Below are positions 8,195-27,293 of a DNA stretch of 64,000 nt, piece by piece (the stretch's first letter is position 1; each line of letters starts with the position of its first letter). Origin of the DNA: a virus; the IMG/VR virus record IMGVR_UViG_3300017991_000003, positions 1-64,000 of that record, one strand, 5' to 3'. A program made the position numbers and the translations under genes. Under the pieces are notes generated by a model that was given only the letters and a program-made list of their open reading frames with translations, was not told the origin of the DNA and did not search any database.

Positions 8195-8812
8195 GTGAAC
8201 CAGGGTGAGGCTCTCTTCCGATCCAAGGGCATCTGGCCCGGGGTCTACCAAGCGGTCCTGAACAAGAAGTTCGGGCCCGCCTGGCTTACGTGGGAGCCCG
8301 AGACCCTCTGGGCAGAGATCAAGCGCGTCTGGAAGGCTGAGCCGAGCGGCGAGATCCAGTCCAAGATCCTCGCTACCCGGATCGCGATGACTACCGACTT
8401 GTTCTACACGGACGCCCCGGCGTTCGAGAACATGATCCTGGCGGTCAACGATGTCGAGTATGACCCCGAGCTCCTCCAGCTGGCTACCCCGGAAGAGATC
8501 GTTTACGGTGTGCGCATGCTGTCGCCTTTGCGTGACGGCTCCTTCAACCGAGAAGTGACGGGCTACATCCGAGCCTGCTGCCGTCGGGCCGGCCTCCTGC
8601 GCTATCCCGACGACCTGCGCTTTGCTGAGCCGCAGTACCCAGACAACCTGGCGCGCATCGTCTCTCAGATCACCACTAAAGAAGCTGGCGACGACCTCGA
8701 CCCGCACGATACCGTAGCGGTGCAGTCCAACAATCTGTACCGGATCCAGGTGTACGTGAACGAGAAGCTGGCCCAGATGAGCACTGACGCTCTGACCCCC
8801 TCCACAGAATGA
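8195..8812 (+). CDS. hypothetical protein
   Basis: 205 aa ORF starting with GTG at 8195; stop overlaps next start. Confidence 0.55.
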   Translation: MNQGEALFRSKGIWPGVYQAVLNKKFGPAWLTWEPETLWAEIKRVWKAEPSGEIQSKILATRIAMTTDLFYTDAPAFENMILAVNDVEYDPELLQLATPEEIVYGVRMLSPLRDGSFNREVTGYIRACCRRAGLLRYPDDLRFAEPQYPDNLARIVSQITTKEAGDDLDPHDTVAVQSNNLYRIQVYVNEKLAQMSTDALTPSTE

Positions 8813-9339
8813 CCGAGACATGGAAAGAGGTCCCGGGCTACCCCGGGTACGAGGTCTCTGATCAGGGGCGGGTACGATCGTGGCGATCCAAACGCTACCC
8901 CGGGAAGCGTCGCAAGAAGCCGTGGGTTCTGCGCCCGTGGACGAACTCGGAGGGGTACCTCCGCGTCAGCCTTTGTAAGGACGGGAAGCGGGATACGCGG
9001 CTTGTGCATCGCGTAGTGCTCTCGGCGTTTGATCCTGACCCGCCCGCAGAGCGGTTCCAGGGAGAGCATCTAGACGGGAGCAAGGACAACAACAAGCTAG
9101 CTAACCTCCGTTGGTCGACTCCAAAGGAGAACAACGCTCGGAAGCATGAGCACGGTACTCAGCCGAAGCGCGGTGAGGAGTCACACCAAGCCCGTCTAAC
9201 CGAGGATCAGGTTCGAGAGATCCGTCGGCTGAAGGCGGAGGAGGGGTGGTCGTTCACCAAGCTGGGCAAGCACTTCGGTGTCAGCGATGTGGCTTGCTCC
9301 AAGATCGTTCGCCGTAAGACCTGGAGTCACGTCAAATGA
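8809..9339 (+). CDS. free-standing HNH homing endonuclease (NUMOD4-like N-terminus)
   Basis: N-terminal W-x-x-VPGYPGYEVSDQGRVRS motif; HNH core EHLDGSKDNNKLANLRWSTPKENN (about 9064..9129). Confidence 0.7.
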   Translation: MTETWKEVPGYPGYEVSDQGRVRSWRSKRYPGKRRKKPWVLRPWTNSEGYLRVSLCKDGKRDTRLVHRVVLSAFDPDPPAERFQGEHLDGSKDNNKLANLRWSTPKENNARKHEHGTQPKRGEESHQARLTEDQVREIRRLKAEEGWSFTKLGKHFGVSDVACSKIVRRKTWSHVK

Positions 9340-11231: not shown

Positions 11232-11611
11232 TGGGCGCCAAGGGCAGTGGGCGTACACGCATCGAAGCGGACCTGATGCCTCGGGTCCGTGAGGGCTTTG
11301 CACGTCGTCTCCAAGACATGGGGACGATGAGCAAGCTCGGCGCCATCCTGCTCAAGCCCAACCAAGGGACACAGCGCCGCATCCGGCGTGAGACCCTCAA
11401 TATGGACACGGTCGGTGATCAGAAGCGTTGGCAGATGCTGCACAACGACTCCGAGCGCTATGAGGTCATCACGGCCAAGGACAGCAACACCAACCGCGGT
11501 AACTACTGCCACGTGACCTACATCGAGAAGGGTGACGACCTCCCCCTCGTCAAGAGCGAGAGCGAGCTCCGTTCTGAGGATAAAGAGCGCATCAAAGAGG
11601 AGGGCGGCTGA
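11231..11611 (+). CDS. hypothetical protein
   Basis: 126 aa ORF; ATGA-type overlaps at both ends. Confidence 0.5.
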   Translation: MGAKGSGRTRIEADLMPRVREGFARRLQDMGTMSKLGAILLKPNQGTQRRIRRETLNMDTVGDQKRWQMLHNDSERYEVITAKDSNTNRGNYCHVTYIEKGDDLPLVKSESELRSEDKERIKEEGG

Positions 11612-14600
11612 TGCTCGAAGGGCAGCACTTCCGGCAGTTCAAAGAGGCGCTGACTCGGTCGGAGGGCATCGTCAAGGGTATGTTCCCGATCGAGAGCCCC
11701 ACGAAGCGGCTCGAGGTCACGAACCTGCGTTGGACGAACGTAGGCCCGGACGTGGTCTTCGACGTCGAGAAGCAGAAGCAGGCCAAGCTGAAGGAGCAGT
11801 CGATCAACGCTGTTCTGGTCGGTGACGTCACGCTGCGTGAGCTCGGCTCCAAAGGGAAAGTCCTCGACCAGACCAAGCGCTACCCGATCCTCTCGGTGCC
11901 GCACCTGACGATGAACGCTGGCTACATCGTCAACGGCAAAGAGCAGCAGGTCGTCAACCAGTTCCGTCTGCGCCCTGGCATCTACACCCGGTTCACGGGG
12001 GACGACAACGTCGAGGCGTTCCTCAACACCACGGCGATCGGTACTTACAAGATCCTCCTCGACCGCTCTACCGGTGTGATCCGTATGCGGGTCGGCACGG
12101 CCGCACGCACCCCGATCTACTCGGTTCTGATCGCGGCTGGGCTGACTGATGCCGAGATCAAGACACTGCTGGGGACGGAGCTCTACGCGGAGAACAAGCG
12201 GGCGGCCAAGCCGGATCAGGACATCCCCAAGCTCCTGAAGCGGATGCGCCCGTACCTCAACCAGCCGGCGGAGCTGGGCGAGAAGTCAAAGCTCGTGCGT
12301 CAGTATCTGGAGTCGAAGCCCCTCGACCCCGCCGTGAACAAGGTCACGGTGGGCGAGGGTCTCGACCGCATCGACCGCAATGCCCTCGTGGCGGCGATCA
12401 AGAAGGTCCTCAAGCTGTCTAAGGGTGAGGCAGAGCCCGACGACACGGAGAGCCTTGCCTTCAAGTACATCCTCTCGATCGAGGACTTCGTGCCCGAGCG
12501 GCTCCAGAAGGCGGCCGACGGGCTCAAGTACAAGATCCAGGGCGACATGCGCCGCCGGGATGAGATCCGCTTGATCCTCCCGCCCAACCGCCTGAGCCAG
12601 CCGGTGGAGTCCTTTTTCACCACCTCGGAGTTCACGCGCTACTCGAGCCAGCACAACCCGCTGGACATGGCGGCGATCTCGAGCCTGACCACCACCATGG
12701 GTGATGGCGGGATCTCGAGCTCCCATGCGATCACCGACGAGGTGCGTACGATCCACCCGAGCCACTACGGTCTCCTGGATCCCATGCACACCCCGGAGGG
12801 GTGTTGCAGCGCTGACATGGAGGTCATGACGGATCAAGGCTGGGTTGCGTGGCCCGACGTAGACCGGACCACTCGGTTTGCTTGCCTAGACGCTGATCAA
12901 GGCCTTACCTATCACCGCGCCTCCGAGCTACACGTCTACGACCACGACGGGCCTCTCTACGGGTTCAAGTCGGAGACCCTGGAATACCTGCTGACCCCGA
13001 ATCATCGTCAGTGGGTCCGCCCGATTGAGGATCGATCGACGCGTGGGTATCGGTTTGAGACCGCGGAGGAGATGTACGGTAAACGTCGGCGAGTCCGCAT
13101 CGGCGGGCATTTGGCCTACGAGGGTCAGGCCGTCGATACCTGGCAGCTCCCTGAAATCCCTAAGGGAAGCAACTCGCAGAAGGTTTTCCCGGCCTTTGCT
13201 ATTGAGGACTGGGCTGAGTTCCTTGGCTGGTACCTGAGCGAAGGGAGCAGTCGGGGTTACGTGACTTCGATCACGCAGTATGAGGCTGCGAACCCGGAGA
13301 ATGTGGCTCAGATCGAGGCGCTGTTGACACGCATGCAGGTCGCGTGGAGCCGCAGCTCCAGGAGCTTCTCGATCCCAGGTAAGCAGCTAGTCAGCTACCT
13401 GCGTCAGTTCGGCCACTCCGATACCAAGTACATCCCTAAAGAGGCGTTCGACTTCCCGGCGGCGGCGCGTGAGGCCATGCTCGAGGCGCTAATGCTCGGA
13501 GACGGTCGCAAGGGCAAGGGCCGATGCTCTTGCTACTGCACTACATCTGAGCAGCTCGCCAAGGACGTGCAGCGCTTGGCCTTCGGCCTAGGGGTGTCGA
13601 GCAAAATCACCTTTGAGCCGGATACGCGGGAGGAGCACTACCGCGGGTGCTGGATCGTCCATCTCCACGCGCTCACTGAGCGTCAGGTGCTGCCACAAAT
13701 GCGCGCAGCAGGTAACGGCCAGTTCATCGAGGAATACCAAGGCAAGGTCTACTGCGCCACGGTTCCTGGTGGCCTGCTGTACATCCGTCGAGCCGGCAAG
13801 AGCGGTTTCTGGTCCGGCAATAGCAAGGTGGGCGTGACCGGTCACTTGGCCCTGGGCGCGCGCAAGAAGGGGCAGACCCTCTACGTCCCGGTCTATGACG
13901 CCAAGACGGGCAAGCGCGTGGAGAAGTCGGTTCAAGACCTGGACCAGGCCACCATCGCGTTCCCTGATCAGTACGACAACCTGCCCGACAAGCCGGGCGC
14001 GTCGGTCAAGGGCAAGCCCACGACCAAGCTGAAGAAGGTCAAGGCCCGTAGTCGTAACGAGTTCACGGAGGTGAGTCCGTCGGCTGTGGACTACATCTTC
14101 GTCAGCTCCGACAGCTTCTTCAGCTCGACCACGGCTGCGATTCCCTTCCTCCCCAACAACGACGCCAACCGCGTCCTGATGGGTGACAAGCATATCGAGC
14201 AGTCGGTGAACCTTGAGGACCCCGACGCGCCGATGGTCCAGCACCGCATCCGAGGCCGGGGCTATGAGGAGATGTTCGGGGAGCGCCTAGCCCCCCGGGC
14301 TATCGACCCCAAGACCGGCAAGCCCGTCGGCGGAGAGGTCCTCGAGGTCACCAAGACGCATATCACCATCCGGCCGGATGGCGGCGGCCGTCGACGCATC
14401 AAGGTCCCGATCCACGACCACTACCCGCTCAACAGCCGGACGTTCCTGCACGACGAGCCGGTGGTGAAGAAGGGTGACAAGGTCAAGCCTGGCCAGATCC
14501 TGGCCCGCAACAACTTCACCAAGGACGGAGACCTGGCGGTCGGCAAGAACCTCCGAGTCGCCTACACCGCGTACAAGGGCTACAACTTCGAGGACGGCAT

Positions 14601-17600
14601 CGTCATCTCGGAAGGGGCGGCTAAGAAGTTGACCTCGGTGCACAAGTACGAGGCCCGCGTTGAGAAGGGCAAGGGCATCACGGTCGGTGCAGACGCCTAC
14701 GCTGCCGCCTACCCCTCGGAGCTGGAGCATATCCGCGACCGTGCCCGGCGCTACGACGCTGTGGGTGTTATCAAGAAGGGCCAGCAGGTCGTCAAGGGCG
14801 ATGTCCTGATCCCCGCCATCCAGGAGGTCGAGGCGCATCCCGAGTACGACTACAAGCGTCTGCACCGCAGCGCCGGTCTCCGGCACATGGATATCAGCGA
14901 GACCTGGAACCACGACTTCCCTGGTGAGGTCGTAGACGTGGTCAAGACTCGGACATTCGTGAAGGTCGTGGTCAAGAGCAAGGAACCGATGCAGGTCGGT
15001 GACAAGCTGAGCTCGCGCCACGGCGCCAAGGGCATCGTCGTCAAGATCATCCCTGATGAGGAGATGTACAAGGACGAGGAAGGTGCGACGATCGATATCC
15101 TGCTCAACCCGGCGGGGGTGCCTGGTCGCGTCAACACGGGTCAGATGCTCGAAGCCGCGGCCGGCAAGCTGGCCCGTAAGACGGGCAAGAAGTACTACAC
15201 CGACAACTTCAACGAGAAGGGCAGCACGATCAAGAACCTCCGCAAGGAACTAGCGGGGGCCGGGATCTCCGATGAGGAGACGATCGTCGACCCGAAGACG
15301 GGGCACAAGCTCGAACGCGTCCTCGTCGGCGACACGCACATCTACAAACTGACCCACCAGGTCACGGGCAAGATGAAGGCCCGCGCCTCTGTGGGTGAGC
15401 CCTACTCGGTGGACGAGCAGCCCGTGAAGGGATCAGGGTCAGGTGCCCAGCGCATCGGCATCCTCGACACCTTCAGCCTGCTTTCGGGCGACGCCACGGC
15501 GTTCCTCGAGGATGCCTTCGGCCTCAAGAGCCAGAAGAACGACGAGTACTGGCGTGCCCTCCAGACTGGGCAAACACTGCCGCCTCCGAAGACCCCGTTC
15601 ATCGAGGAGAAGTTCGTGGCCATGCTCATTGGCGCGGGCATCGACCTCAAACAGAAAGGCAGTCGCATCGACGCGGGGCCGCTGACGGATGCTGAGGTTC
15701 TCTCAATGTCCAATGGCGCCATCGAGCGCCCGGTGGCGGTCAAGGCATCGAACCTCAAACCCGAGCGTGGCGGGCTCTTCGATCCCGGCAAGACCGGCGG
15801 TCCTGGCGGCAACTACTGGAACCATATCGATCTAGCCTCTGAGGTCGTGCACCCGCTGATGACCGACGCTGCGGCGTCCGTGGGCGGGTTCAAGACCAAG
15901 AAGGAGATGGACCAGATCATCCAGGGCCTGCTCGCGGTCACCGAGGAGGGCGAGGTCGTGGAGGCAGGCACCGCGGGTGCCGTGGCCGGTGGCTCGGGAG
16001 TGAAGCGCCGACTCGCTACGATCAACGTTCCGAGGGCCATCAAAGAGACCGAGTTGGTGGCGGCGACCGCCAAGGGCGCCAAGCTGGACAAGGCCCACAA
16101 ACGGCTGCGCTACCTGCGCTCGCTTCAAGCCAGTGGCCACTCGGCTGTTGATGCCTACATCAACAAGACCCTCCCGGTCATCCCCGCCAAGTTCCGTCAG
16201 ATCGCTCCGATGCCCGACGGCAGCCTGAGTGTGGCTGACGCCAACCACGGCTACCGAGAGGTCCTTCTCATCAACGAGAAGATCAAGCAGCTGAAGGCTC
16301 TCGGAGTCGACGAGCAGAACCTGCGAGCACTCAACAAGGCTCTGGCGGACGCTACGGCCGGCCTCGTAGGCACGGCGCCTCCGATCAGCCGAGGCAAGGT
16401 CTTCCGCGGCTTCGTCAGTCAGATCCACGGCCCGACGCCTAAGTCGGGTCTGGCGCAGTCGAAGCTCATGGGACGCAACCAAGACCTGAGCGGCCGGTCG
16501 ACTGTGATCCCCAACCCCAAGCTGGGGATGGACGAGGTCGGTATCCCGGCTGAGATCGCCTACAAGATCTACAAGCCCTTCGTCATCAAGCGTCTCGTCA
16601 CCGCCGGCCACAAGCCGCTAGATGCCCGCTCCATGGTCGAGCAGGGCCACCCGGCCGCCCGTCGTGCGCTCGAGGTGGAGGCTGAAGACCGCCCGGTGCT
16701 GATGAACCGCGCGCCCTCACTGCACAAGTTCAACATCCAGGCCCTCAAGCCCCGGGTGATCGACGGTAAGGCGGTCGAGGTCAACCCGCTCATCGTGAGC
16801 GGCTACAACATGGACTTCGACGGGGATACGGCCGGTCTACACGTTCCGGTCTCTGAAGAGGCCCGGCGCGAGGCTCGTGAGAAGCTGCTCCCGTCGCGCA
16901 ACCTGTTCAGCCCTCGGGAGGAGTTCGTGGTCCATGCCCCGACCAAGGAGACGATCCTCGGGGTGTACCTGATGACTACGCCCAAGGGACTTGCCTCCAA
17001 GTCGTTCTCCTCCGACCAGGAGATGGTCAAGGCATACCAGGCCAAGGAGATCAAGGTCAACGAAGCGGTGAAGGTCCAAGGCGCTGTGACCTGCGCCGGT
17101 CAGGCCATCTTCAACACGGCGCTTCCTATGGATCTGCGCGTGGGTCGTACGTCGGTGACCGGTCCGCGTTTGAGCCAGCTCCTGGTTCGCATCGGTCGGC
17201 AGTTGGGCCCCGACCGGGCCGCTCAAGTGATCTCGAAGATCAAGGACCTAGGCAACCACTACGTGACCGAGGTCGGGTTCTCCGTGAGTCTCCGGGACCT
17301 TGAGCTTGATACGAGCAAGCGGGATCAGATCGTCAACAAGCTCAAACGAGACGCCAAGACCAAGGGGTTCGATGAGGCGGCTGGCGAGGCGCTCGAAGAC
17401 ATCGCAGCGCTGCTGGCGTCGGCAGAGGATAACCGGTTCGTGGAGGCTGGCATCACATCCGGAGCCCTAGGCTCCAAAGGCATCCACCGGATGCTGGCGA
17501 GCACCGTGGCAGTGACGGATCACAAGGGCAAGACGGTCCCGATCCCGGTCGAGAAGTCCTATGCCGAGGGCCACGATCTAGGTACCTACTTGGGTACGAC

Positions 17601-18765
17601 CCCCGGCGCCCGGAAGGGCTTGATCGACAAAGGCCTGAGCGTGGCGGATACGGGCTACTTCAGCCGCATGCTCGTCAACAGCTCGATCGAGAACCAGGTG
17701 ACCGTCGCGGACTGCGGAACCAAGTCGGGCCAGGATCTGCCGCTCAACTCCCAGGAGCTCGCGCACCGCTACGGCGCCGAGGGCCGCTACCGCAACGTCT
17801 TGATCACCTCGGACATCGCCCGCCGCCTGCGCTCCCTAGGCCAGAAAACGGTCAAGGTCCGTAGCCCTCTGACTTGTCAGGCGCAGAAGGGCGTCTGTCA
17901 GAAGTGCTTCGGCCTACTCGAGGATGGCAAACCGCCTCGCATCGGTTATCACGTCGGTGCTCTGGCCGGCCAGACCCTGGGTGAGGTGGCTACCCAGCTG
18001 ACCCTGCGCAGCTTCCACACTGGTGGCGCTGTTGGTGGGCCCGACCTGGGTTTTGAGCGCATCCGTCAGATCATGGAGATGCCTCAAAGCATCCAAGGCA
18101 AAGCCATCCTGAGCGAGGCCACCGGCCAGGTGACGCGCATCGACACAGCGCCGGCGGGCGGTAGTTACGTCTACGTCGGCTCCGAGAAGCACTTCATCCC
18201 CAAGGAGCTGGGGGTAGCGGTGAGTCGAGGCCAGCGCGTGAAGGCGGGGGATCAGCTGAGCAAGTCGGGTGTGATCAAGCCTCAGGAGCTGCTAGATACG
18301 ACAGGGGACATCAATCGTGTCCGTACCCATCTGATCAACGAGCTGGATGCTAACTACAGAGCGGCCGGCAAGAAGGTCAACCGCCGGATCTTCGAGACGG
18401 TGGTCAAGCCTCTTACTGACCGTGCGACTGTGACGGACGTCGGAGACGCCGGCCGCCATTTCCCGGTACATGCCGGGGAGGTCATGCCTGTCAACCAGAT
18501 CGAGGAGATGAACCGCAAGCTCAAGCAGCGCCGTCTTCGCCCGATCCAGTTCGAGCCTATGATCATGGGTATCAAGCAGGCCCCGTTCCAGAGCGAGGAC
18601 TTCGTGGGAACGCTCACCCATGAGAAGCTCAAGCGGACCCTCACCGAGGCCCCTAGCCTGGGTAAAGCCACGGACCTTGTGCGCGGCCACCCGATGGCCC
18701 GCCTGGGTCTCACCAACCTCCGATCCATCGAAGCCATCAAACGACCTCAAGGGGTGAAGCGATGA
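11611..18765 (+). CDS. fused beta-beta' multisubunit DNA-dependent RNA polymerase, intein-containing
   Basis: Beta motifs: SQHNPLD...HPSHYG...HTPEG, IPFLPNNDANRVLMG, GDKLSSRHGAKGIVV (14998..15033), VNTGQMLE, GAQRIGILDTFSLL. Beta' motifs in the same frame: NHIDLASEVVHPL, NMDFDGD (about 16807..16827), PSLHKFNIQA. Beta' N-terminal Zn-ribbon appears absent. Confidence 0.85.
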   Translation: MLEGQHFRQFKEALTRSEGIVKGMFPIESPTKRLEVTNLRWTNVGPDVVFDVEKQKQAKLKEQSINAVLVGDVTLRELGSKGKVLDQTKRYPILSVPHLTMNAGYIVNGKEQQVVNQFRLRPGIYTRFTGDDNVEAFLNTTAIGTYKILLDRSTGVIRMRVGTAARTPIYSVLIAAGLTDAEIKTLLGTELYAENKRAAKPDQDIPKLLKRMRPYLNQPAELGEKSKLVRQYLESKPLDPAVNKVTVGEGLDRIDRNALVAAIKKVLKLSKGEAEPDDTESLAFKYILSIEDFVPERLQKAADGLKYKIQGDMRRRDEIRLILPPNRLSQPVESFFTTSEFTRYSSQHNPLDMAAISSLTTTMGDGGISSSHAITDEVRTIHPSHYGLLDPMHTPEGCCSADMEVMTDQGWVAWPDVDRTTRFACLDADQGLTYHRASELHVYDHDGPLYGFKSETLEYLLTPNHRQWVRPIEDRSTRGYRFETAEEMYGKRRRVRIGGHLAYEGQAVDTWQLPEIPKGSNSQKVFPAFAIEDWAEFLGWYLSEGSSRGYVTSITQYEAANPENVAQIEALLTRMQVAWSRSSRSFSIPGKQLVSYLRQFGHSDTKYIPKEAFDFPAAAREAMLEALMLGDGRKGKGRCSCYCTTSEQLAKDVQRLAFGLGVSSKITFEPDTREEHYRGCWIVHLHALTERQVLPQMRAAGNGQFIEEYQGKVYCATVPGGLLYIRRAGKSGFWSGNSKVGVTGHLALGARKKGQTLYVPVYDAKTGKRVEKSVQDLDQATIAFPDQYDNLPDKPGASVKGKPTTKLKKVKARSRNEFTEVSPSAVDYIFVSSDSFFSSTTAAIPFLPNNDANRVLMGDKHIEQSVNLEDPDAPMVQHRIRGRGYEEMFGERLAPRAIDPKTGKPVGGEVLEVTKTHITIRPDGGGRRRIKVPIHDHYPLNSRTFLHDEPVVKKGDKVKPGQILARNNFTKDGDLAVGKNLRVAYTAYKGYNFEDGIVISEGAAKKLTSVHKYEARVEKGKGITVGADAYAAAYPSELEHIRDRARRYDAVGVIKKGQQVVKGDVLIPAIQEVEAHPEYDYKRLHRSAGLRHMDISETWNHDFPGEVVDVVKTRTFVKVVVKSKEPMQVGDKLSSRHGAKGIVVKIIPDEEMYKDEEGATIDILLNPAGVPGRVNTGQMLEAAAGKLARKTGKKYYTDNFNEKGSTIKNLRKELAGAGISDEETIVDPKTGHKLERVLVGDTHIYKLTHQVTGKMKARASVGEPYSVDEQPVKGSGSGAQRIGILDTFSLLSGDATAFLEDAFGLKSQKNDEYWRALQTGQTLPPPKTPFIEEKFVAMLIGAGIDLKQKGSRIDAGPLTDAEVLSMSNGAIERPVAVKASNLKPERGGLFDPGKTGGPGGNYWNHIDLASEVVHPLMTDAAASVGGFKTKKEMDQIIQGLLAVTEEGEVVEAGTAGAVAGGSGVKRRLATINVPRAIKETELVAATAKGAKLDKAHKRLRYLRSLQASGHSAVDAYINKTLPVIPAKFRQIAPMPDGSLSVADANHGYREVLLINEKIKQLKALGVDEQNLRALNKALADATAGLVGTAPPISRGKVFRGFVSQIHGPTPKSGLAQSKLMGRNQDLSGRSTVIPNPKLGMDEVGIPAEIAYKIYKPFVIKRLVTAGHKPLDARSMVEQGHPAARRALEVEAEDRPVLMNRAPSLHKFNIQALKPRVIDGKAVEVNPLIVSGYNMDFDGDTAGLHVPVSEEARREAREKLLPSRNLFSPREEFVVHAPTKETILGVYLMTTPKGLASKSFSSDQEMVKAYQAKEIKVNEAVKVQGAVTCAGQAIFNTALPMDLRVGRTSVTGPRLSQLLVRIGRQLGPDRAAQVISKIKDLGNHYVTEVGFSVSLRDLELDTSKRDQIVNKLKRDAKTKGFDEAAGEALEDIAALLASAEDNRFVEAGITSGALGSKGIHRMLASTVAVTDHKGKTVPIPVEKSYAEGHDLGTYLGTTPGARKGLIDKGLSVADTGYFSRMLVNSSIENQVTVADCGTKSGQDLPLNSQELAHRYGAEGRYRNVLITSDIARRLRSLGQKTVKVRSPLTCQAQKGVCQKCFGLLEDGKPPRIGYHVGALAGQTLGEVATQLTLRSFHTGGAVGGPDLGFERIRQIMEMPQSIQGKAILSEATGQVTRIDTAPAGGSYVYVGSEKHFIPKELGVAVSRGQRVKAGDQLSKSGVIKPQELLDTTGDINRVRTHLINELDANYRAAGKKVNRRIFETVVKPLTDRATVTDVGDAGRHFPVHAGEVMPVNQIEEMNRKLKQRRLRPIQFEPMIMGIKQAPFQSEDFVGTLTHEKLKRTLTEAPSLGKATDLVRGHPMARLGLTNLRSIEAIKRPQGVKR
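12802..13821 (+). mobile_element. intein with LAGLIDADG homing-endonuclease domain inserted after the conserved TPEG of the beta module
   Basis: Begins CCSADMEVMTDQG (block A-like), TPNH (block B-like), two LAGLIDADG-like helices (LGWYLSEGS, EALMLGDGRKG), ends ...FWSGN followed by Ser; flanks (HTPEG / SKVGV...IPFLPNNDANR) restore beta-subunit colinearity. Boundaries within a few codons. Confidence 0.65.
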
Positions 18766-19124
18766 CCAAGCGCAGCGCAGCCTACATCGAGGGTCTCCTG
18801 AAGGAGGCCGCAGGTAAAAAGAAGAAGAAGGAGAAAGACAGCCAGCCTAAGAGCTTGACTCGCTCCGACATCGACAAGGCCCGACTGAACCCGGACCTGA
18901 TGCGTCGTATGCGGATGCGTTCGAGCGTGGCTGTCCCCCTCAAAGGCGATGAGCTGCTTCAGGTGCGCCGGCTGGCGCGTCGGAACCTTCCCTTGATGCG
19001 TCAGCGCAACCCCAAGCTGACCGAGAAGGCCCTTTACGATCGCCTGGTGGCGCTGATCCAGAGCCGCCGGCCCGAGATGCGCAAGAAGCTCCTGGCAGCT
19101 GTAGCCACGGAGTACGGGACCTAG
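18762..19124 (+). CDS. hypothetical small basic protein
   Basis: 120 aa ORF; ATGA overlap with RNAP stop; Lys/Arg-rich. Confidence 0.5.
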   Translation: MTKRSAAYIEGLLKEAAGKKKKKEKDSQPKSLTRSDIDKARLNPDLMRRMRMRSSVAVPLKGDELLQVRRLARRNLPLMRQRNPKLTEKALYDRLVALIQSRRPEMRKKLLAAVATEYGT

Positions 19125-19126
19125 GA

Positions 19127-20422
19127 ATGCAGCCGCAGTATGGCGCTACCTCGTGGGCCGGGTTCGCGGAGTTCGCTGATTCCAAGGCGGGCTCCGGTGT
19201 CCACCACGTGGGCGTCGTACGCTCCTATGATCCCAGCAAGAAGCTCTACCTAGTTTCGGTCGAAGGCATCGGGGATCGACAGTGCCGCAGGCTCCTGACC
19301 GGCCTGGACAAGCCCATCCCCGTAGGCGGGGGCTGCGTGGTCGTGGAGCTCAAGGCCCGGCCGTGGCTCATTGTGGGGGAGCTGGATCGGATCTCCCGGG
19401 CCCCGGACAAAGCCCTCCCCGGGGCTAGCGAACAAGCTGCGGCCTCTGAGGCTGCGGTTGGAGCGGCGCTGACCCAGAAGGACCCGGCTCAGGCACCCTC
19501 CTTCCGCCCTCTGGATTACCAGGGGATGGCCGAGGAGCCGCAGTTTGCGGGCGATGCCGGCCTGGAGAACCGCACGAAAGACCACCTGAGGCGGTCTCGA
19601 GTGAAGGTCTACAGCTTCGGCGATATCCTGCTGTGGGCCTCTGGCCTATGCCACTCGCTGTATCACAAGGCCACCAACACCATCTACCGACGCTGCCGTA
19701 ACGAGATCTTCCAGGCAGCCGGCGTACTCCTCCAGGTCCTGACCCCTGCGGACGGGGATCAAGCGGGTAAGACGACCCGCCGATTGGTTCTACGAAGGAA
19801 CGCGCTGGATACGACCGTGATCGACAAGATCCGCTCTGAGGGCCAGATCCTGGCCTCGGACGGCGGGTCGGGCGATGAGCTCCTGATTGCCCCGGTTGCA
19901 GATCGCGGGGAGCGAACGATCTGGGGCGACCACCGTGCGGAGGAGATCGACAACGATCTGGGGACTTACCGGTTCCAGCAAGAGACGGGCGGTGAGCAGC
20001 GGATCACCGGTCAGGTGGGCTCCTTTGAGGCTGAGAACGCGGCGCACCCTGTTTCTGGCACTCAGAACCCCTCTACGCCCTCTGGCGTGGCGCATCCGGC
20101 CGCTAGTACGGCCTACGGGGACGCCGCAGAGGGGAACGTGGAGCGCGGTGTGCATCTCGATCTAGGGGGTCTCCGGGTAACCTACGACCAGGATCGGGGT
20201 GAGCTCGAGGTCCTGAATACAGCCTCTGAGGAGACTCAGCGGGTGATCATGAAGCCTGATCAGCTCCTCATGGAGCGGGCCGGGCAGTCCTTCTCGTTGG
20301 ACAACAGCGGGCTTACGATCCGCGTGAGCTCCTACACCCTCGAGGTCGACGGAGCTATCACGCAGACAGCCGGCGGGAATATGACGATCAACGCCTCTGA
20401 CATGGACGTGAACCTTGGCTGA
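19127..20422 (+). CDS. hypothetical structural protein (possible baseplate/central spike component)
   Basis: 431 aa ORF immediately upstream of the PAAR-like ORF; no catalytic motif. Confidence 0.4.
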   Translation: MQPQYGATSWAGFAEFADSKAGSGVHHVGVVRSYDPSKKLYLVSVEGIGDRQCRRLLTGLDKPIPVGGGCVVVELKARPWLIVGELDRISRAPDKALPGASEQAAASEAAVGAALTQKDPAQAPSFRPLDYQGMAEEPQFAGDAGLENRTKDHLRRSRVKVYSFGDILLWASGLCHSLYHKATNTIYRRCRNEIFQAAGVLLQVLTPADGDQAGKTTRRLVLRRNALDTTVIDKIRSEGQILASDGGSGDELLIAPVADRGERTIWGDHRAEEIDNDLGTYRFQQETGGEQRITGQVGSFEAENAAHPVSGTQNPSTPSGVAHPAASTAYGDAAEGNVERGVHLDLGGLRVTYDQDRGELEVLNTASEETQRVIMKPDQLLMERAGQSFSLDNSGLTIRVSSYTLEVDGAITQTAGGNMTINASDMDVNLG

Positions 20423-20699
20423 GGTCCAGCGAGAGGGTGACCCCATCAGCTGTGGGGACAAGCACGGCAGCGCTGCGGGGTTCCGCCTCAACGGTAAGCG
20501 TGTGGCCCTCCTAGGGGAGCTCTCGGCCGGCCATGACGGCTTCCCACCTACCCCGGTCCTCACCGGTGAGAGCCGTTTTCGGGTAAATGGGGTCCCTATC
20601 GTACTGGAGGGGGCCGCCTATGCGCCGCATACCCGCGGGGACACCACACACGCCATCCGGTTGGCGCAAGGCAGTGGCGTCGGCCTAAACGTATACTAG
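20415..20699 (+). CDS. PAAR-like spike-tip protein
   Basis: 94 aa; GDPISCGDKHGSAAGF...NGKRVALLGEL...GH...VNGVPIVLEGAAYAPHTRGD resembles PAAR repeat proteins; TTG start overlapping upstream stop. Confidence 0.35.
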   Translation: MAEVQREGDPISCGDKHGSAAGFRLNGKRVALLGELSAGHDGFPPTPVLTGESRFRVNGVPIVLEGAAYAPHTRGDTTHAIRLAQGSGVGLNVY

Positions 20700-20720
20700 A
20701 CTGGACCTTAGAGTCTTCCC

Positions 20721-21074
20721 ATGCCCGACTTCGCAACAGGAGTAATCCGAGTTCCTCCGGATAACGACAATGCGGCCTCGCCCCTAGCGGTCCGTCTAGG
20801 AGGGGTCTCGGCAGGCACAAACGCCAACATCGTAGTCGAGAACATCGGGTCTGCACGCGTCAAGGCTCGAACACGTACTACCGCCGAGACCGGTTCATTT
20901 GTCGACGTTGCCCCGGGCCGCCGAGCCCTTGTCGAGGTCAACGGCGTAGCCGGCCAAGCCATCACGTTGGACGTTTACGTCCCGCGTCAACCCCGTTTCA
21001 TTCACACTCACCAAACCGGAGCGCCGGTATCCTACCTACCGGGTCGCTTGACGGTCTATCGCGACGAAGCCTAG
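20721..21074 (+). CDS. hypothetical small beta-rich protein, paralogue A
   Basis: 117 aa; shares ASPL..V..G.VS, TLD.Y, PVSY..GR pattern with the next ORF. Confidence 0.5.
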   Translation: MPDFATGVIRVPPDNDNAASPLAVRLGGVSAGTNANIVVENIGSARVKARTRTTAETGSFVDVAPGRRALVEVNGVAGQAITLDVYVPRQPRFIHTHQTGAPVSYLPGRLTVYRDEA

Positions 21075-21075
21075 C

Positions 21076-21429
21076 ATGAGTTCCATCGGAGTCCTCCAAG
21101 TCCGGCCTGAGCACACGCAGGCCTCGCCGCTCAATGTGGCCGCCGGTAACGTCTCGCTCGTGGGCGAGGCTACCTTCACGATCCAGAACGTCGGGCACAG
21201 TGATGTCTGGTGCCGCCTCAAGAACACCAACGCGGCTACCTCGACTACCTGGGCGCGTGCTGTTCCCGGGCATCACGCGCTGCTGTCGATCGACGGTACT
21301 GCCGACGACGCCCTGACTCTGGACCTGTACAGCGCGGGACAGAGCTACCGATACATCCCGATCCACAACACAACCGCTGAACCGGTCTCCTACATCGGCC
21401 GCGTGGAGGTCACTCGCCATGGCAACTGA
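21076..21429 (+). CDS. hypothetical small beta-rich protein, paralogue B
   Basis: 117 aa; tandem duplicate of 20721..21074. Confidence 0.5.
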   Translation: MSSIGVLQVRPEHTQASPLNVAAGNVSLVGEATFTIQNVGHSDVWCRLKNTNAATSTTWARAVPGHHALLSIDGTADDALTLDLYSAGQSYRYIPIHNTTAEPVSYIGRVEVTRHGN

Positions 21430-23128
21430 TAACCCGAACCTCGGCGGCCAGCCGCTCTTCGTCTCGGCCCCCGACAACCTGCTTCAGAAGCTCGCCAGCT
21501 CCAAGCTCTCCAAGGACCCCAAGGAGTGGGAACAGGAGATCATGGACTACCTGCATGAGCAGCACCCGTACATCGCCGACCACAAGGTCGTGGTGGCCAT
21601 GAACAAGACGGATACCGACGACGGCCATGGCGTGGGCCACGTCAAGATCGGCGACAAAGTCACCATGCCGGTGATCGTCGAGAGCAACCGTCTTCAGCCG
21701 CTGGACCTGTTCGTGGCTGACGACCGTCTCCAGCCGCTGACCAAGGAGGCCTTCACCGCCGCGGTGCAGAGCCACTCCTTCGGCAAAGCCGTGAAGCCGG
21801 GCAAGGGCGAGGCGTCTGACAGCTCGATCACCTACGCGACCCTGCCGCCCTTCGACGGTAAGTACGCCTATGGCTCCTTGGGCTTCACCCGGGACCAGCT
21901 GACCGAGGTCCTCGAGCCCCTGCACGAGGCCAATCAGATGGGCTTCTGCCTGGCCAACCCTTGGTTTGGGGAGGTCCTGGGCGAGTACATCAAGCACGCC
22001 CAGCTCGAGCAAGAAGAGGAGAAGGTGGCCGGCGTCGCGTACAGCGCGCGCATGGTGACTACCCGACCCTTCGAGACCATCAAGACCGCGGGTTTTGCCC
22101 AGGTGTCGACGGATAAAGGCAACGTCCCCGCTCTAGTCTTCGATCACCATCTGACCTTTGGACGCGGTGAGGTGGCTACGCCGGGTCGGTTCTCGGTGCT
22201 CGGTCTGGATAAGGAAGCCACCTACGGTCGCGCCTGGCGAGGCTACCCCGCCGGGCGCCCTGTCCAGGAGTTCGACATCCCGGAGCGTGAGATCGGCGAC
22301 CGGGCGGTGCTCGCCCTGATCAAGGAAGGATCGGCCGTGGCTAGTGAGCCCTTCACGGTCCTGGACCAGGATGATAAGCGCACGCTGGTTGAGGCCGATG
22401 ACGGTCGGCGGTGGTCGCTGCGCTTTGATGCCGACAACCCACTGTACAAGCAGGCGGAGGATCAGATCTTCCTGTCTGACGAGTGGGCGATGTTCCCGGT
22501 GGGCCGCGAGGCGGATCTTCTGAACGTCGACGTGGCGAACCAGAAGACCCTGCCGGTAGGTATGACCTCGATTGAGAAGGTGGGCGGCCTGTTCAAGGTC
22601 CACCAGGCCGGGCGCCTCGAGAGTCTGAAGCGCGTGCCGGCCGAGGGCATGGCTCTGGATAAGCTGGCGAGCTACTTGACGGGCTTGGACGATGAGGTCC
22701 GCGGAGCGATCCTGGACCACATGGATAAGGTCGGCCGCGCCTTCTTCGTCATCTATCCCGAGGTCGAGAAGACCGCTGGCGAGACCTACTCGTTCCCCGA
22801 GCCGGATCCGTCTGTTTTCGAGTCTTGCACGCTGGCTGCTGGCCTGATCACCCCCGACCTGTGCAAGCGCGCCAAGGTCGAAGAGGAGAAGGCCAAGAAG
22901 ACCATCGATGCGATCCTGGGCTTGAACTTCCTCAATGAGGAGAACATGCACAAGTTCGTGGACCGCATCGACGCACTCGAGGAGGCCAAGGACTGCGTGG
23001 CCCAGCTGCTTCTGGCTAGTCGCCTTGGGCTATCCATCGACTCCCAGCCCCTGCGGACGGCGATGTTCTCTCTGGACTCGGTGTCTCGTGATCTCCGCGA
23101 GCTCCGCAACGCGGTGACCGCTAAGTAG
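21419..23128 (+). CDS. hypothetical protein (569 aa)
   Basis: Long ORF with coding codon bias; overlaps upstream stop; function not recognised. Confidence 0.6.
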   Translation: MATDNPNLGGQPLFVSAPDNLLQKLASSKLSKDPKEWEQEIMDYLHEQHPYIADHKVVVAMNKTDTDDGHGVGHVKIGDKVTMPVIVESNRLQPLDLFVADDRLQPLTKEAFTAAVQSHSFGKAVKPGKGEASDSSITYATLPPFDGKYAYGSLGFTRDQLTEVLEPLHEANQMGFCLANPWFGEVLGEYIKHAQLEQEEEKVAGVAYSARMVTTRPFETIKTAGFAQVSTDKGNVPALVFDHHLTFGRGEVATPGRFSVLGLDKEATYGRAWRGYPAGRPVQEFDIPEREIGDRAVLALIKEGSAVASEPFTVLDQDDKRTLVEADDGRRWSLRFDADNPLYKQAEDQIFLSDEWAMFPVGREADLLNVDVANQKTLPVGMTSIEKVGGLFKVHQAGRLESLKRVPAEGMALDKLASYLTGLDDEVRGAILDHMDKVGRAFFVIYPEVEKTAGETYSFPEPDPSVFESCTLAAGLITPDLCKRAKVEEEKAKKTIDAILGLNFLNEENMHKFVDRIDALEEAKDCVAQLLLASRLGLSIDSQPLRTAMFSLDSVSRDLRELRNAVTAK

Positions 23129-23135
23129 GTCCGCG

Positions 23136-24218
23136 ATGGCCGGCTCCACGGGGCCGTACTCGCGTTCTCAACTCTGCCGCAAGTACGGGATCACTGACAG
23201 GACCCTGAGGGCCCTCGAGGATCGAGGGACTCTTGTGCTCACGTGGTACCCCCGCAACGGGCTCATGGTCACCGACCTTGAGTCGAATGACCAAAAGCGC
23301 ATTCTGGCGATGGCGCGCAATCACGTCATGTCATTTGGGAGGGCGCAGGGGATTCCCCGGCTGCCCTTCCTGCGCTTCCTGTTCCTTCGTTTTATCCAGG
23401 TCCCGGTGGAGGATCTGTACGCGGAGCTTCTGGACAGGAACATGATTGCGGCCCGTAGCTTCAAGCTCCCTCAGCTGAAGAAGATGCACAAGGCCTTTGT
23501 GGAGGCGGTCCCGCGCCCGCTTCAGAAGAAGGTACGGGCGCATGCCGAGGCCTCGACCGCCACGGAGAAGAAGCAGCTTGACGTGCTGCTCAAGGTCTGC
23601 GGCATCTACGAGGCCTACCACAACCCACAGCAGGAGCAGAGCTTCAAGTACCTGTCGGATCCTGAGATCAAACTAGGCATCGACATGGGTTTGAGCTCTC
23701 GCGCCAAACTGCCTGAGATTGCTGACTTCATCGCAGACGTGGCGGGCTTCTCGATCAACCTCGAGGCGCTCCTGTTCTACCACGTCCTCTACCACGACAT
23801 CAGCTTCCTGGACAACGACGAGATCCAGGCCTACCTGAAGGGCCTGAAGCCGTCGCATCGGGACCTCCTAGGTAAAGCCGTCGGCTCCACGATCCCCGAG
23901 CTCCGCATGGCTCTCGGCTTCGTCGAGGACATGTCGATCGAGGACACCGTGGTCCAGCTTCGGAACGCGGTCCTAACCAAGACCTCGGCGACCCTGCTTG
24001 CCCCCGGCTCCCAAGAGAACACCCGAGAGTTCAGCGCTCTCTTGCGCAACTTCGCCTACTTGGTCGATCGCTCGAATATCGAGGGTACCGGCAAAGGAGG
24101 GGCCGCCGCGTCTATGCCCGACGTGTTCAGCCAGTTCGAGATGAAGATCTCGCAGATGGATGGGGCTGGCTTGTTTCGGCTCCCCTCCGCCGAAGGAGAA
24201 GAACTGAACCATGGATGA
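23136..24218 (+). CDS. hypothetical protein (360 aa)
   Basis: ORF ends overlapping the terminase start. Confidence 0.55.
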   Translation: MAGSTGPYSRSQLCRKYGITDRTLRALEDRGTLVLTWYPRNGLMVTDLESNDQKRILAMARNHVMSFGRAQGIPRLPFLRFLFLRFIQVPVEDLYAELLDRNMIAARSFKLPQLKKMHKAFVEAVPRPLQKKVRAHAEASTATEKKQLDVLLKVCGIYEAYHNPQQEQSFKYLSDPEIKLGIDMGLSSRAKLPEIADFIADVAGFSINLEALLFYHVLYHDISFLDNDEIQAYLKGLKPSHRDLLGKAVGSTIPELRMALGFVEDMSIEDTVVQLRNAVLTKTSATLLAPGSQENTREFSALLRNFAYLVDRSNIEGTGKGGAAASMPDVFSQFEMKISQMDGAGLFRLPSAEGEELNHG

Positions 24219-26040
24219 TGCCACGTTCGGGGGTACGCCGCTCTCCTCGAGCAATGTGGAGCTCCTTGAGGATCTGCACGAGCTCTTCCGAGATAACGAC
24301 GACATCACTGACGAGCAGTGGGAGGAGCTAGACTGGTTCGCCTACAACCAGGAAGCTGAAGAGGCCGCAGAGGAGTCTGCGGACCGGGCTGATCCGATCA
24401 ACCCGCCTCCGGGCCTTGCTGAGGGCCTGGCTCACGGCGGCGTCATTATGGCCACCATCTCGGATATGGTGGAGAACCTCCTGACGGTCGACCAGGAGCC
24501 TTTCAGCTTCGTCGGACGGGAGTACCTGAAGGGGCTGTACGACCCGGTAGAAGAGTACCCGGAGGGGTGCCGTAACCAGATCTGGATCGCCGGCCGTCAG
24601 GTCGAGAAGTCAACCACCCAGAGCGCCAAGTCCGTGGCCTTGGGGGCGCTGACCAAGAGCTACAAGACCCTGTACGTGGCGCCCCGCTTCGACCAGGTCC
24701 GGGTCTTCAGCCAGCAGCGCTTCAAGCCCATGTGCGAGGACAGCCCGAACCTCGCCCCGTGGATCAAGCCCAGCCGGACGCTGTGGCAGGTCTCCGCCCG
24801 AGAGTTCATGAACGGGGCGTTCTACAACTTCCGGAGCTGTTACCTGAGCGCCGACAACGCTCGAGGCATTACCTGCCACCACCTCAACGTCGACGAGATC
24901 CAGGACATCGTCTCTGATGCTATCCCTGTTCTGGAGGAGTGCCAAAGCCACGCTACGGCCGAACTGCGGTTCCGCTCCTATGCCGGGACGCCCAAGACGA
25001 CCTCCAATGTCCTGAGCCGGCGGTACGAGAACAGCTGCCAGTTCGAGTGGTTGAGTCAGTGCGCGGCGTGCAACCACTGGAACTTCATGGACGAGCGGAT
25101 CGTGGGCGACGACTTCTTCGCCTGCGTCCGGTGCGGCAAGGAGATCAACCCCAAGGTGGGGCAGTTCGTGCCTAAGCGCCCCGAGCTCCTCGACAAGTGC
25201 TGGGGGTTCCGAATCAGTCAGCTGATGGTCCCGTTCCAGAGTCACGCGGACATCATCGCCAAGCGGGACGACCCTAACTACAGCCGCCAGAAGTACTTCA
25301 ACGAGTGCTTGGGTCTGCCATACGACGAGGGCCAGCTGGTCCTGACCGAGGCTGTGATGCGGGACGCCTGCGACGCGGATCGAGGGATGTGGACGATCCA
25401 ACAGTGCCGCGAGCTGGCCGACCGCGGCGTGCCGCTCTTCGGCGGGGTCGATTACGGGCCGGGTGAGGGTGAGGATCCTTCTTACACAGTGCTGACTATC
25501 GGCTGGTGGGCGACCGCCGGCCACTTCGAAGTCCTCTGGATGCGCAGACTGGTTGGCGATGAGTCGAACCTGGCCCTCCAGACCAAGGTCATCAACCAGT
25601 ACTTCACCGAGGCCCGTGTCCGCTGGATGGGGGCTGACTGGGGGTTCGGTGCTGCTATCAACAAGCAGCTGATCCACGAGCACGGCTGGCACCGCGTGGC
25701 TCATCAGCGTTGCCTGCTCGAGTTCCAGTACGGCGGCCAGAAGCAGATGGCTTCCTGGAACGCCAAGGCGGAGCGGTACATCATCGACCGCAACCAGGGC
25801 ATGGAGAAGCTGATCGACTCGATCCGCACCAATCAGGTCCGATTCTTCCGAATGGAGGAGATGTCCCAGTTCGTTGACGACTTCACGACTATCTACGTGG
25901 AGTTCGATGAGCGGCGGAACACCCGGAAGTACGACCACGACCTGCCGGACGATGCTTTCCACTCGGTCAACTACGCCTACATGGCGGGCCTCCAGCACCG
26001 GAATAAGCTGGTCCCGAGCTGGCTGACTCCGCTGGATTGA
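24211..26040 (+). CDS. terminase large subunit (ATPase + RNaseH-like nuclease) with inserted Zn-ribbon
   Basis: Deviant Walker A IAGRQVEKST, Walker B-like HHLNVDEIQD, C-terminal GVDYGPGEGEDPSYTVLTIGW acidic nuclease-type motif; CAACNHW...CVRCGK ribbon. Confidence 0.55.
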   Translation: MDDATFGGTPLSSSNVELLEDLHELFRDNDDITDEQWEELDWFAYNQEAEEAAEESADRADPINPPPGLAEGLAHGGVIMATISDMVENLLTVDQEPFSFVGREYLKGLYDPVEEYPEGCRNQIWIAGRQVEKSTTQSAKSVALGALTKSYKTLYVAPRFDQVRVFSQQRFKPMCEDSPNLAPWIKPSRTLWQVSAREFMNGAFYNFRSCYLSADNARGITCHHLNVDEIQDIVSDAIPVLEECQSHATAELRFRSYAGTPKTTSNVLSRRYENSCQFEWLSQCAACNHWNFMDERIVGDDFFACVRCGKEINPKVGQFVPKRPELLDKCWGFRISQLMVPFQSHADIIAKRDDPNYSRQKYFNECLGLPYDEGQLVLTEAVMRDACDADRGMWTIQQCRELADRGVPLFGGVDYGPGEGEDPSYTVLTIGWWATAGHFEVLWMRRLVGDESNLALQTKVINQYFTEARVRWMGADWGFGAAINKQLIHEHGWHRVAHQRCLLEFQYGGQKQMASWNAKAERYIIDRNQGMEKLIDSIRTNQVRFFRMEEMSQFVDDFTTIYVEFDERRNTRKYDHDLPDDAFHSVNYAYMAGLQHRNKLVPSWLTPLD

Positions 26041-26156: not shown

Positions 26157-27293
26157 ATGAACTCCCTCGCCCTCTACTTCATGGCCCGGAGCGCGGCCCG
26201 TGATCTAGTGCGTAGTGATGTCCCCCTCAACGAGGGAATCGCCAAGCACGCCTCGGAGCACGGCCTGAGCCAGCTTCAGATCCAGCGCGTGGTGGAGGCC
26301 GCCAACCACGAAGCAAACGCCCTCCTCCAGAAAACAGCGGAGGACAAGACCTTCAGCTTCGACTTGGCCAGCCTGGACGGGGTCCTCTCGGCCCTGACGC
26401 CGGGCACGGCGGCCACTACGGTCAGCCTTGGGAAGCTAGCTGAGGCTGCTGACGCCCTTCTGGAGCCTCGAACGCGGTTTGATGAGCGTGTCGAGGCTCT
26501 TCCGCGTGAGTCCGAGGACGCCAAGATTGCCCGCTTCCGCTCGACGATGCACGCCCTGGACAAGGTGGCTGATCTGGCCGCTACCCAGATGCGGGTTGTC
26601 CAGATGGACCGCATGCGTCAGATGGAGAAATGCGCCAGCGGATTCGAGCGTCTGGTGACCCAGGCCGGGGAGTACATCCGCCGCGGCGGCGCCCTCGAGG
26701 ACATGCGCAAGTACGCGCAGGCCGTCGAGCCGGGCTTCGACCGAGGCTGGGACAAGATCTTCGGCCGGGTCCAAGAAGAGCTCCAGAAGCTCGGTCACCC
26801 CTTCACGGGCGAGCTGGCCTCGGCGACCGAGCTGATGGCTGACCGCAAGGACCGGCCCGGAGGCCCGCTGCCCCACGCGGGCACCCTGAAGGTCACTAAC
26901 GGCCGCCACGCCCTGGCCGGCGAGCTCAGCACCCTCCGGGACAATGTCTCGTTCCTGGATCGCCTGGCTGACCGTACCCGGGAGATCGACAACTTCAACA
27001 GAGCTGTCCGGGTCTCTCAGCGCATGATCATCGACAACCAGGACGTGGACACCCTGTTCGCCAAGGAAGCTGAGAAACTGGCTGCCTTTACCGGGGAGGA
27101 GCTTGGGGAGCACATCGAGAAGCTCGCCAGGAAGGACTCGAACATCTCTACGGTGGAGAAGGGTCTGGTCGGCACTGCTGTTGACCATACCGGTAAAGCC
27201 TCGATCAAGGCCGTGATGAAGCGCGCCCTCTCTGATCACATCCCTGGGGCCTTTGTCGGTCCCGGTACCCCTGCTGCCTACCGCTCCAAATGA
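26157..27293 (+). CDS. hypothetical protein (378 aa)
   Basis: ORF after a 116-nt intergenic region carrying repeats; no motif recognised. Confidence 0.55.
   Translation: MNSLALYFMARSAARDLVRSDVPLNEGIAKHASEHGLSQLQIQRVVEAANHEANALLQKTAEDKTFSFDLASLDGVLSALTPGTAATTVSLGKLAEAADALLEPRTRFDERVEALPRESEDAKIARFRSTMHALDKVADLAATQMRVVQMDRMRQMEKCASGFERLVTQAGEYIRRGGALEDMRKYAQAVEPGFDRGWDKIFGRVQEELQKLGHPFTGELASATELMADRKDRPGGPLPHAGTLKVTNGRHALAGELSTLRDNVSFLDRLADRTREIDNFNRAVRVSQRMIIDNQDVDTLFAKEAEKLAAFTGEELGEHIEKLARKDSNISTVEKGLVGTAVDHTGKASIKAVMKRALSDHIPGAFVGPGTPAAYRSK

Follow-up and report, generated by a model that had tools for sequence, protein, structure and literature searches.

The window analysed here, a stretch of 64,000 nucleotides of viral DNA, contains at 20721-21429 two adjacent genes on the plus strand, each of which encodes a protein of 117 aa. 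The upstream gene (ORF1, 20721-21074, stop codon included) encodes the faster-evolving of the two paralogues, and the downstream gene (ORF2, 21076-21429, stop codon included) the one that is closest to the single-copy gene of a related genome, L005. The initial annotation placed the two genes 2 nt apart; they are indeed adjacent, although the spacer between the TAG stop of ORF1 and the ATG of ORF2 is a single base (21075), and 2 is the difference between the end coordinate of the one and the start coordinate of the other. The two proteins were significantly similar on pairwise alignment, with 44/112 identities (39%), 57% positives, 63.9 bits and E=2e-19 by BLASTP, and their Smith-Waterman score of 160 compared with 28.3 +/- 5.2 (maximum 64) for shuffled sequences (n=2000; z=25.4). 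The same length, the same strand, the adjacency, the BLASTP result and the same predicted fold bear out the earlier proposal that these are equal-length paralogues that arose by tandem duplication. At the DNA level the only match between the copies is a remnant of 12 nt at shared A-S-P-L codons, and we conclude that the duplication is old.

Each of the two genes has an orthologue at the same position in two other genomes, L011 and L012. When the upstream copies of the window and L012 were compared, the similarity score was 229 in the coding frame (frame 1) and 54 and 99 in the other two, and the chance of the ORF having stayed open was 0.015-0.036 for each upstream copy in the three genomes. 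On these measures ORF1 and ORF2 are genuine coding sequences. In a GC-rich genome such as this one, in which both strands hold many long ORFs that are spurious, one could suppose that the similarity reflects chance or composition, or that the ORFs are not genes; however, this is refuted by the alignment statistics (E=2e-19, z=25), by syntenic homologues in more than nine contigs and by the confident fold obtained from the family alignment, and its probability is negligible.

Upstream of the pair and on the same strand, a gene for a fused beta-beta' RNA polymerase of 2384 aa (11611-18765; Rpb2_6, E=5.5e-60, along with Rpb1_2, Rpb1_3 and Rpb1_5) is followed by genes for a 120-aa protein (18762-19124), for a central spike of 431 aa that has a C-terminal beta-helix tip (19127-20422), and for a PAAR-type spike-tip protein of 94 aa (20415-20699; phrog_281, E=4.8e-12). 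The spike was assigned using a profile of eight orthologues, which matched the C-terminal beta-helix of VgrG (6u9e) with E=2.7e-4 and phiKZ gp164 with E=0.17. Against Pfam PF05488 the PAAR gene scored E=3.4e-5 and 24.4 bits, under the 27-bit cut-off, and PF05488 is present in the positional PAAR orthologues of L001-L004 and L016. The phrog_281 match, the presence of PF05488 in the orthologues and the preceding central spike uphold the initial annotation in placing a PAAR-like gene directly upstream of the pair. A metagenomic contig of 174.7 kb, L018, seems to contain the window as its first 64 kb, and an IMG/VR contig has the same genes. The public gene calls for L018 omit both the PAAR gene and ORF1 (L018 9347-10001, equivalent to window 20422-21076), and the PAAR gene is likewise uncalled in L005-L008; surveys based on annotation would miss the pair.

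The PAAR stop codon and the spacer that precedes ORF1 are spanned by a 17-nt stretch, TAGACTGGACCTTAGAG (20697-20713, plus strand). It is identical in L012 (7975-7991), having remained unchanged between the two genomes while the flanking coding DNA diverged. A second exact copy is absent from the window, and the stretch was rejected as a repeated promoter-like motif. No terminator-like site and no meaningful promoter was found between 18.5 and 24.5 kb of the window.

Downstream of the pair, again on the plus strand, are genes for a 569-aa orphan protein without a match in any library (21419-23128), a 360-aa protein with a weak MerR-type HTH (23136-24218), for which the PDB sequence-profile search returned no match, and the large terminase (24211-26040; Pfam and PHROGs), downstream of which head genes were recognised by the same two libraries. 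When ORF1, ORF2 and 30 neighbours were scanned against Pfam and PHROGs, only the PAAR, terminase, HNH, protease-like and capsid-like genes and the RNA polymerase were recognisable. With almost every neighbour an orphan, gene order is a weak guide here.

Some features of the wider neighbourhood were also observed. The fused RNA polymerase gene, immediately upstream of the spike genes, contains an intein-like insertion of LAGLIDADG type that begins with Cys-Cys after a conserved ...TPEG and ends ...SGN, immediately before S; among the relatives, the polymerase of L004 is 2025 aa and has no LAGLIDADG match, and that of L001 is 2358 aa and has one. Upstream of the polymerase, a free-standing HNH endonuclease gene (8809-9339, plus strand; phrog_59, E=1.5e-46) sits among orphan genes, and a 1724-aa protein encoded at 1054-6228 is without any match.

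Neither ORF1 nor ORF2 had a match in Pfam (E<=0.1) or PHROGs, and a word-indexed homology search with ORF1 as sole query also found none. An exhaustive HMM search with a two-sequence profile against 1.84 billion cluster representatives gave 22 matches at E<=1e-3, half of which (11/22, about 11 clusters) are full-length small homologues of 114-123 aa, and a second homology search added a few further close relatives. The remaining matches in the exhaustive search were to long repetitive proteins (P0004, P0008 and others), each hit in many short stretches, which we judged to be compositional, and they were rejected as fusions of the family. Likewise, searches of the GenBank phages by blastn and tblastn with the region, ORF2, the 569-aa protein and the spike found no relative, and the family found no match in the PDB sequence-profile search. 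By these searches the family of ORF1 and ORF2 is real, small and unannotated, and it is new, having no Pfam or PHROG entry. Residues P, N, G and G hardly vary within it, which suggests turns rather than a binding site, and its most conserved linear motif is (D/Q)P-R-[FY]-I followed by PG.

The gene order was the same in every relative recovered, namely RNA polymerase, spike (370-442 aa), PAAR, family gene, an orphan of 500-576 aa, an HTH protein of 346-361 aa and the large terminase, the last of these following the 346-361 aa protein either directly or after an inserted block, depending on the relative. In L001 and L004 a block of reversed genes lies between the family-gene, spike and PAAR block and the terminase. 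A six-frame HMM scan of every locus found two family copies only in the window, L011 (P0018 then P0001) and L012 (P0002 then a 118-aa gene), and a single copy in L001-L008 and L013-L017; within the 64-kb window itself, no family copy beyond ORF1 and ORF2 was found. The initial annotation had spoken of a local duplication. It can be seen that the pair is not peculiar to this genome but common to three related genomes, and that in the wider lineage the family is a single-copy syntenic core gene. On the evidence of the recovered loci, the family gene is shown to belong to the core of a lineage of large phages with a fused beta-beta' RNA polymerase, a lineage that is rare, uncultured and known from metagenomes only. 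Scans of viral contigs for more genomes found L011 alone besides the window's own contig, and scans of GTDB and JGI found no new relative. The only match in a terminase scan of GTDB genomes was L023 (CAIOHY010000340.1, 2.4 kb), at 57% identity, from a freshwater Cellvibrio MAG, which is too weak for a host assignment. Membership in the published 'mReC' RNA-polymerase phages is not claimed, as the phages listed under that name encode beta and beta' as separate genes and are low in GC.

A neighbour-joining tree with 300 bootstraps placed the upstream copies of the window, L011 and L012 in one clade (96% bootstrap) and the downstream copies together with the single copy of L005 in another (100% bootstrap), and the terminase tree had the form (L005,(window,(L011,L012))). 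The sequence signatures of the two clades agree with this division: the upstream copies share PxQ[PA]R[FY] and LPGR, and the downstream copies and L005 share VWCRLxN with a two-residue insertion, QS[YV]R and GRVE[VI]TRHGN (GRVEIIDHEN in L011). From the trees and signatures we conclude that there was one duplication, no later than the common ancestor of the three genomes that have the pair; if it predates that ancestor, L005 has lost one copy. The downstream copy has been shown to keep the ancestral sequence type.

The initial annotation had also asked for variation between related genomes to be checked, and here the two copies were found to have diverged unequally. ORF1 is 39% identical to its orthologue P0002 in L012 and about 30% to P0018 in L011 (29-39% among the upstream copies overall), and ORF2 is 65%, 53% and 44% identical to its counterparts in L012, L011 and L005, respectively. 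The dN for the upstream copy was about twice that for the downstream copy in all three pairings, at 0.64 and 0.27 for window versus L012, 0.74 and 0.39 for window versus L011, and 0.81 and 0.42 for L012 versus L011. Since dS was saturated, the omega values of 0.2-0.5, nominally <1, are unreliable and only indicative. In the window and L012 the GC3 of the upstream copy was 0.62-0.64 and that of the downstream copy 0.78-0.79 (0.62 and 0.79 for ORF1 and ORF2, with neighbouring window genes at 0.73-0.85), and in L011, which has a lower GC, the two copies were similar at 0.57 and 0.59. The family as a whole is among the faster-evolving genes of the block, with 44-53% identity to L005 and L011 versus 76-79% for the terminase and polymerase.

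These differences could be taken to mean that ORF2 alone is functional and that ORF1 is a decaying duplicate heading for loss. The roughly doubled dN, the GC3 of the upstream copy in the window and L012, which is near overall GC, an ORF1 start that has no obvious Shine-Dalgarno sequence, and the absence of a call for ORF1 in the public assembly would all fit such a course, as would the indels and lost N-x-G motif of P0018 and the fact that the close relative L005 does without an upstream copy. However, the upstream copy has been kept open over 114-117 codons in three lineages that are only 29-39% identical, at the chance of 0.015-0.036 each given above; its conservation is specific to the coding frame, it retains the clade motifs PxQ[PA]R[FY] and LPGR and its nominal omega is <1, and the gene caller that missed ORF1 also missed the genuine PAAR gene. 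We consider decay of ORF1 very unlikely. As the upstream copies are open and are conserved in the coding frame alone, the duplication is old and has been retained, and both copies look functional; the upstream copy looks to be under relaxed or altered constraint and yet still constrained as coding sequence. P0018 (L011 5654-5998) is far more derived than the other two upstream copies, with a 4-residue insertion, a 7-residue deletion and a hydrophobic middle segment, the N-x-G motif being gone; it may be degenerating or acquiring a different role.

The stop codon of ORF2 overlaps the start of the gene for the 569-aa protein by 11 nt (ATGGCAACTGA, 21419-21429, plus strand), and a GGAGG lies a few bases upstream, inside ORF2. 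An overlap of 4-11 nt between the stop of the family gene and the start of the orphan is found in the window, L001-L005, L012 and L013, and in L014 and L016 the two genes abut without overlap. The overlap and the GGAGG suggest that the family gene and the orphan are translationally coupled. The 569-aa protein had no match in Pfam, PHROGs, PDB profiles or the GenBank phages, and a homology search with a nine-sequence profile of it recovered the same lineage only. Among four close genomes, residues 31-149 of this protein are 69-87% identical and residues 476-565 are 78-86% identical, and its centre (residues 150-476, about 320 residues) is 26-48% identical. Virion proteins that are exposed and contact the host often have conserved ends and a hypervariable centre, which would be unusual in a portal. 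The 569-aa protein is a candidate for host contact, or else for the portal that went unrecognised.

A portal identity for the 569-aa protein would put the module at the head or neck and not at the tail tip, and would make the 117-aa protein a portal-associated, connector-associated or decoration subunit. The length of the 569-aa gene would suit a portal, and the packaging genes are next to it; nothing in the window was recognised as a portal gene, and the 378-aa protein encoded right after the large terminase (26157-27293, plus strand) is coiled-coil-like: its only PDB-profile matches were of coiled-coil type (keratin and haemagglutinin HA2), and it looks scaffold-like, not portal-like. However, the identity of 26-48% across the centre of the 569-aa protein, where the terminases are 76-78% identical, would be unusual for a portal core, and no portal match was found in Pfam, PHROGs or PDB profiles; furthermore, the block has kept its place beside the spike and PAAR genes in L001 and L004, where the reversed genes part it from the terminase. 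A place for the family on the head or neck side is distinctly unlikely.

The initial annotation had described both proteins as beta-rich and proposed structure prediction as a check. AlphaFold2 predicted eight strands in the same order, and no helix, for each of them. For ORF2, modelled from an alignment of 17 sequences, the mean pLDDT was 85 and the pTM 0.75, and the low-confidence loop at residues 90-106 is the site of the (D/Q)P-R-[FY]-I...PG motif. The ORF1 model was made from a two-sequence alignment and, with a pLDDT of 56, is too poor to use alone, though its order of strands is as in ORF2. A Foldseek search of the PDB with the ORF2 model gave nothing at E<=1e-3 (best E=1.9e-3); the best superpositions, with TM 0.55-0.59, were on the ColH collagen-binding domain and GOLD domains, and the next neighbours were the enterotoxin C-terminal domain, carbohydrate-binding modules, Ena fibre subunits and lambda gpJ domains. 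Against predicted viral structures (BFVD) there were eight matches at E<=1e-3, the best of which (7.6e-5) was a 154-aa protein of Halobacterium phage ChaoS9, and the other neighbours included short, uncharacterised proteins of phages as well as sandwich modules from tail fibres, tailspikes, BppU and neck-passage proteins. The predicted fold class is a small, binding-type, eight-strand beta-sandwich, for which a TM of 0.55-0.59 indicates common architecture only and no specific homology.

In size and build the family protein resembles the ColH/ColG collagen-binding domain (3jqw), the C-terminal domain of the C. perfringens enterotoxin, carbohydrate-binding modules and GOLD domains, all of which are all-beta sandwiches of 8-9 strands and about 95-130 residues. 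Superposition on these modules reached at best a TM of 0.59 (3jqw_C) and E=1.9e-3, with an rmsd of 3.3-4.0 A over about 111 columns. However, the proteins share just 6-14% sequence identity with the collagen-binding, carbohydrate-binding, enterotoxin and GOLD modules, and neither a motif nor a ligand site was found in common; the modelled likeness is architectural and is not evidence of homology or of ligand binding. Among the sequence profiles, PF25692 (Phage_depo_C) gave a sub-threshold match to P0001, the L011 orthologue of ORF2 (residues 30-79 against profile positions 4-54 of 90, E=0.0035, 18.2 bits). Membership in PF25692 was rejected, as one of the 17 family members matches, over about half of the domain and at 18.2 bits against a 25-bit cut-off, and the window proteins do not match at all. 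The family shares a phage adsorption-apparatus context and a general fold with the depolymerases and tailspikes of PF25692, tail fibres, BppU and neck-passage proteins; the PF25692 domain, however, forms the end of a large tailspike, whereas here the protein is the product of a separate 117-aa gene.

In P2-, Mu- and T4-type gene clusters, the spike is followed by a small gp25-like gene (gpW, gp46 or gp25; PF04965) of about 115-130 aa and then by a larger protein. The family gene is like gpW, gp46 and gp25 in its place after the central spike, its length and the larger protein that comes next. However, gp25-like proteins contain helices. A gp25-like identity was rejected, as PF04965 had no match to ORF1 or ORF2 (E<=0.1) or to the 17 family members (E<=5), the predicted fold is all-beta, and no such protein was present among the 50 Foldseek PDB matches listed. 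A tail tube or Hcp-like protein was likewise rejected, there being none among the 50 Foldseek PDB matches listed and no predicted helix.

From the conserved slot, the coupling, the sandwich fold, the fast divergence and the variability pattern of the 569-aa protein, we infer that the family supplies the tail-tip (puncturing) module with a small accessory or adaptor subunit, a tentative reading, drawn from position, fold, coupling and divergence, to which we would give a probability of about 0.4. The family protein would then be a small virion accessory subunit of the module formed by the spike, the PAAR tip and the 569-aa protein, made together with the 569-aa protein, and its beta-sandwich would serve as an adaptor or for binding. 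Docking may involve the conserved (D/Q)P-R-[FY]-I...PG segment, which is poorly ordered in the model. In genomes with two copies, the paralogues would presumably occupy two non-equivalent positions of the same assembly, or differ in binding. The initial annotation went further and suggested paired baseplate or receptor-binding accessory proteins that may have diverged for host range; neither a family match nor a significant structural match backs that identity, for which only position and a generic beta-sandwich speak, and the host-range part of the suggestion is conjectural.

The small size of the protein and the conserved translational coupling to the 569-aa gene would also suit a non-structural protein that serves the 569-aa protein or the spike as an assembly factor or chaperone, made together with its client and not present in the particle, and that the family lacks a match to any known structural family is consistent with this. 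On the other hand, a free-standing, jelly-roll-like sandwich is not typical of the known chaperones of tail fibres and spikes, and an exposed component would better account for the faster-than-average divergence and for the likeness to the binding modules found in adsorption proteins. Neither consideration settles the matter, and we consider a chaperone role unlikely, though less so than a place at the head or neck.

A conceptual precedent for a tail-tip accessory subunit in two non-equivalent positions is provided by phiKZ, in which six gp174 'pin' subunits in two conformations ring the trimeric spike (PMC13250141). The likeness extends to the spike (gp164) and the monomeric tip (gp163.1) being encoded as neighbours, as they are here, and two such positions could by analogy only be filled by a pair of paralogues. 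However, gp174 was rejected as a direct analogue, as it is 354 aa long, is encoded away from the spike and has no detected similarity to the family, and phiKZ has no small sandwich gene after gp163.1. In a more specific form of the tail-tip reading, the family would be an undescribed component of the cell-puncturing tip, a sandwich subunit that collars or decorates the trimeric spike with the 569-aa protein, the paralogues sitting in non-equivalent positions (e.g. 3+3) or providing a second binding specificity. In this detailed form the proposal is speculative and rather improbable.

As the duplication of an orphan gene, the pair itself is ordinary and not surprising in kind, and the structural guess of the initial annotation was reasonable, if unproven. 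We attach modest weight to the finding, in that a new small family marks a conserved module of spike, PAAR, family gene and orphan in poorly known large uncultured phages, and that the pair is a clean example of asymmetric divergence following tandem duplication. If the family is truly a spike-associated binding or adaptor subunit, it would add one more component to the parts list of the phage puncturing device, and the 569-aa protein that is coupled to it would be pointed to as a candidate host-contact protein.
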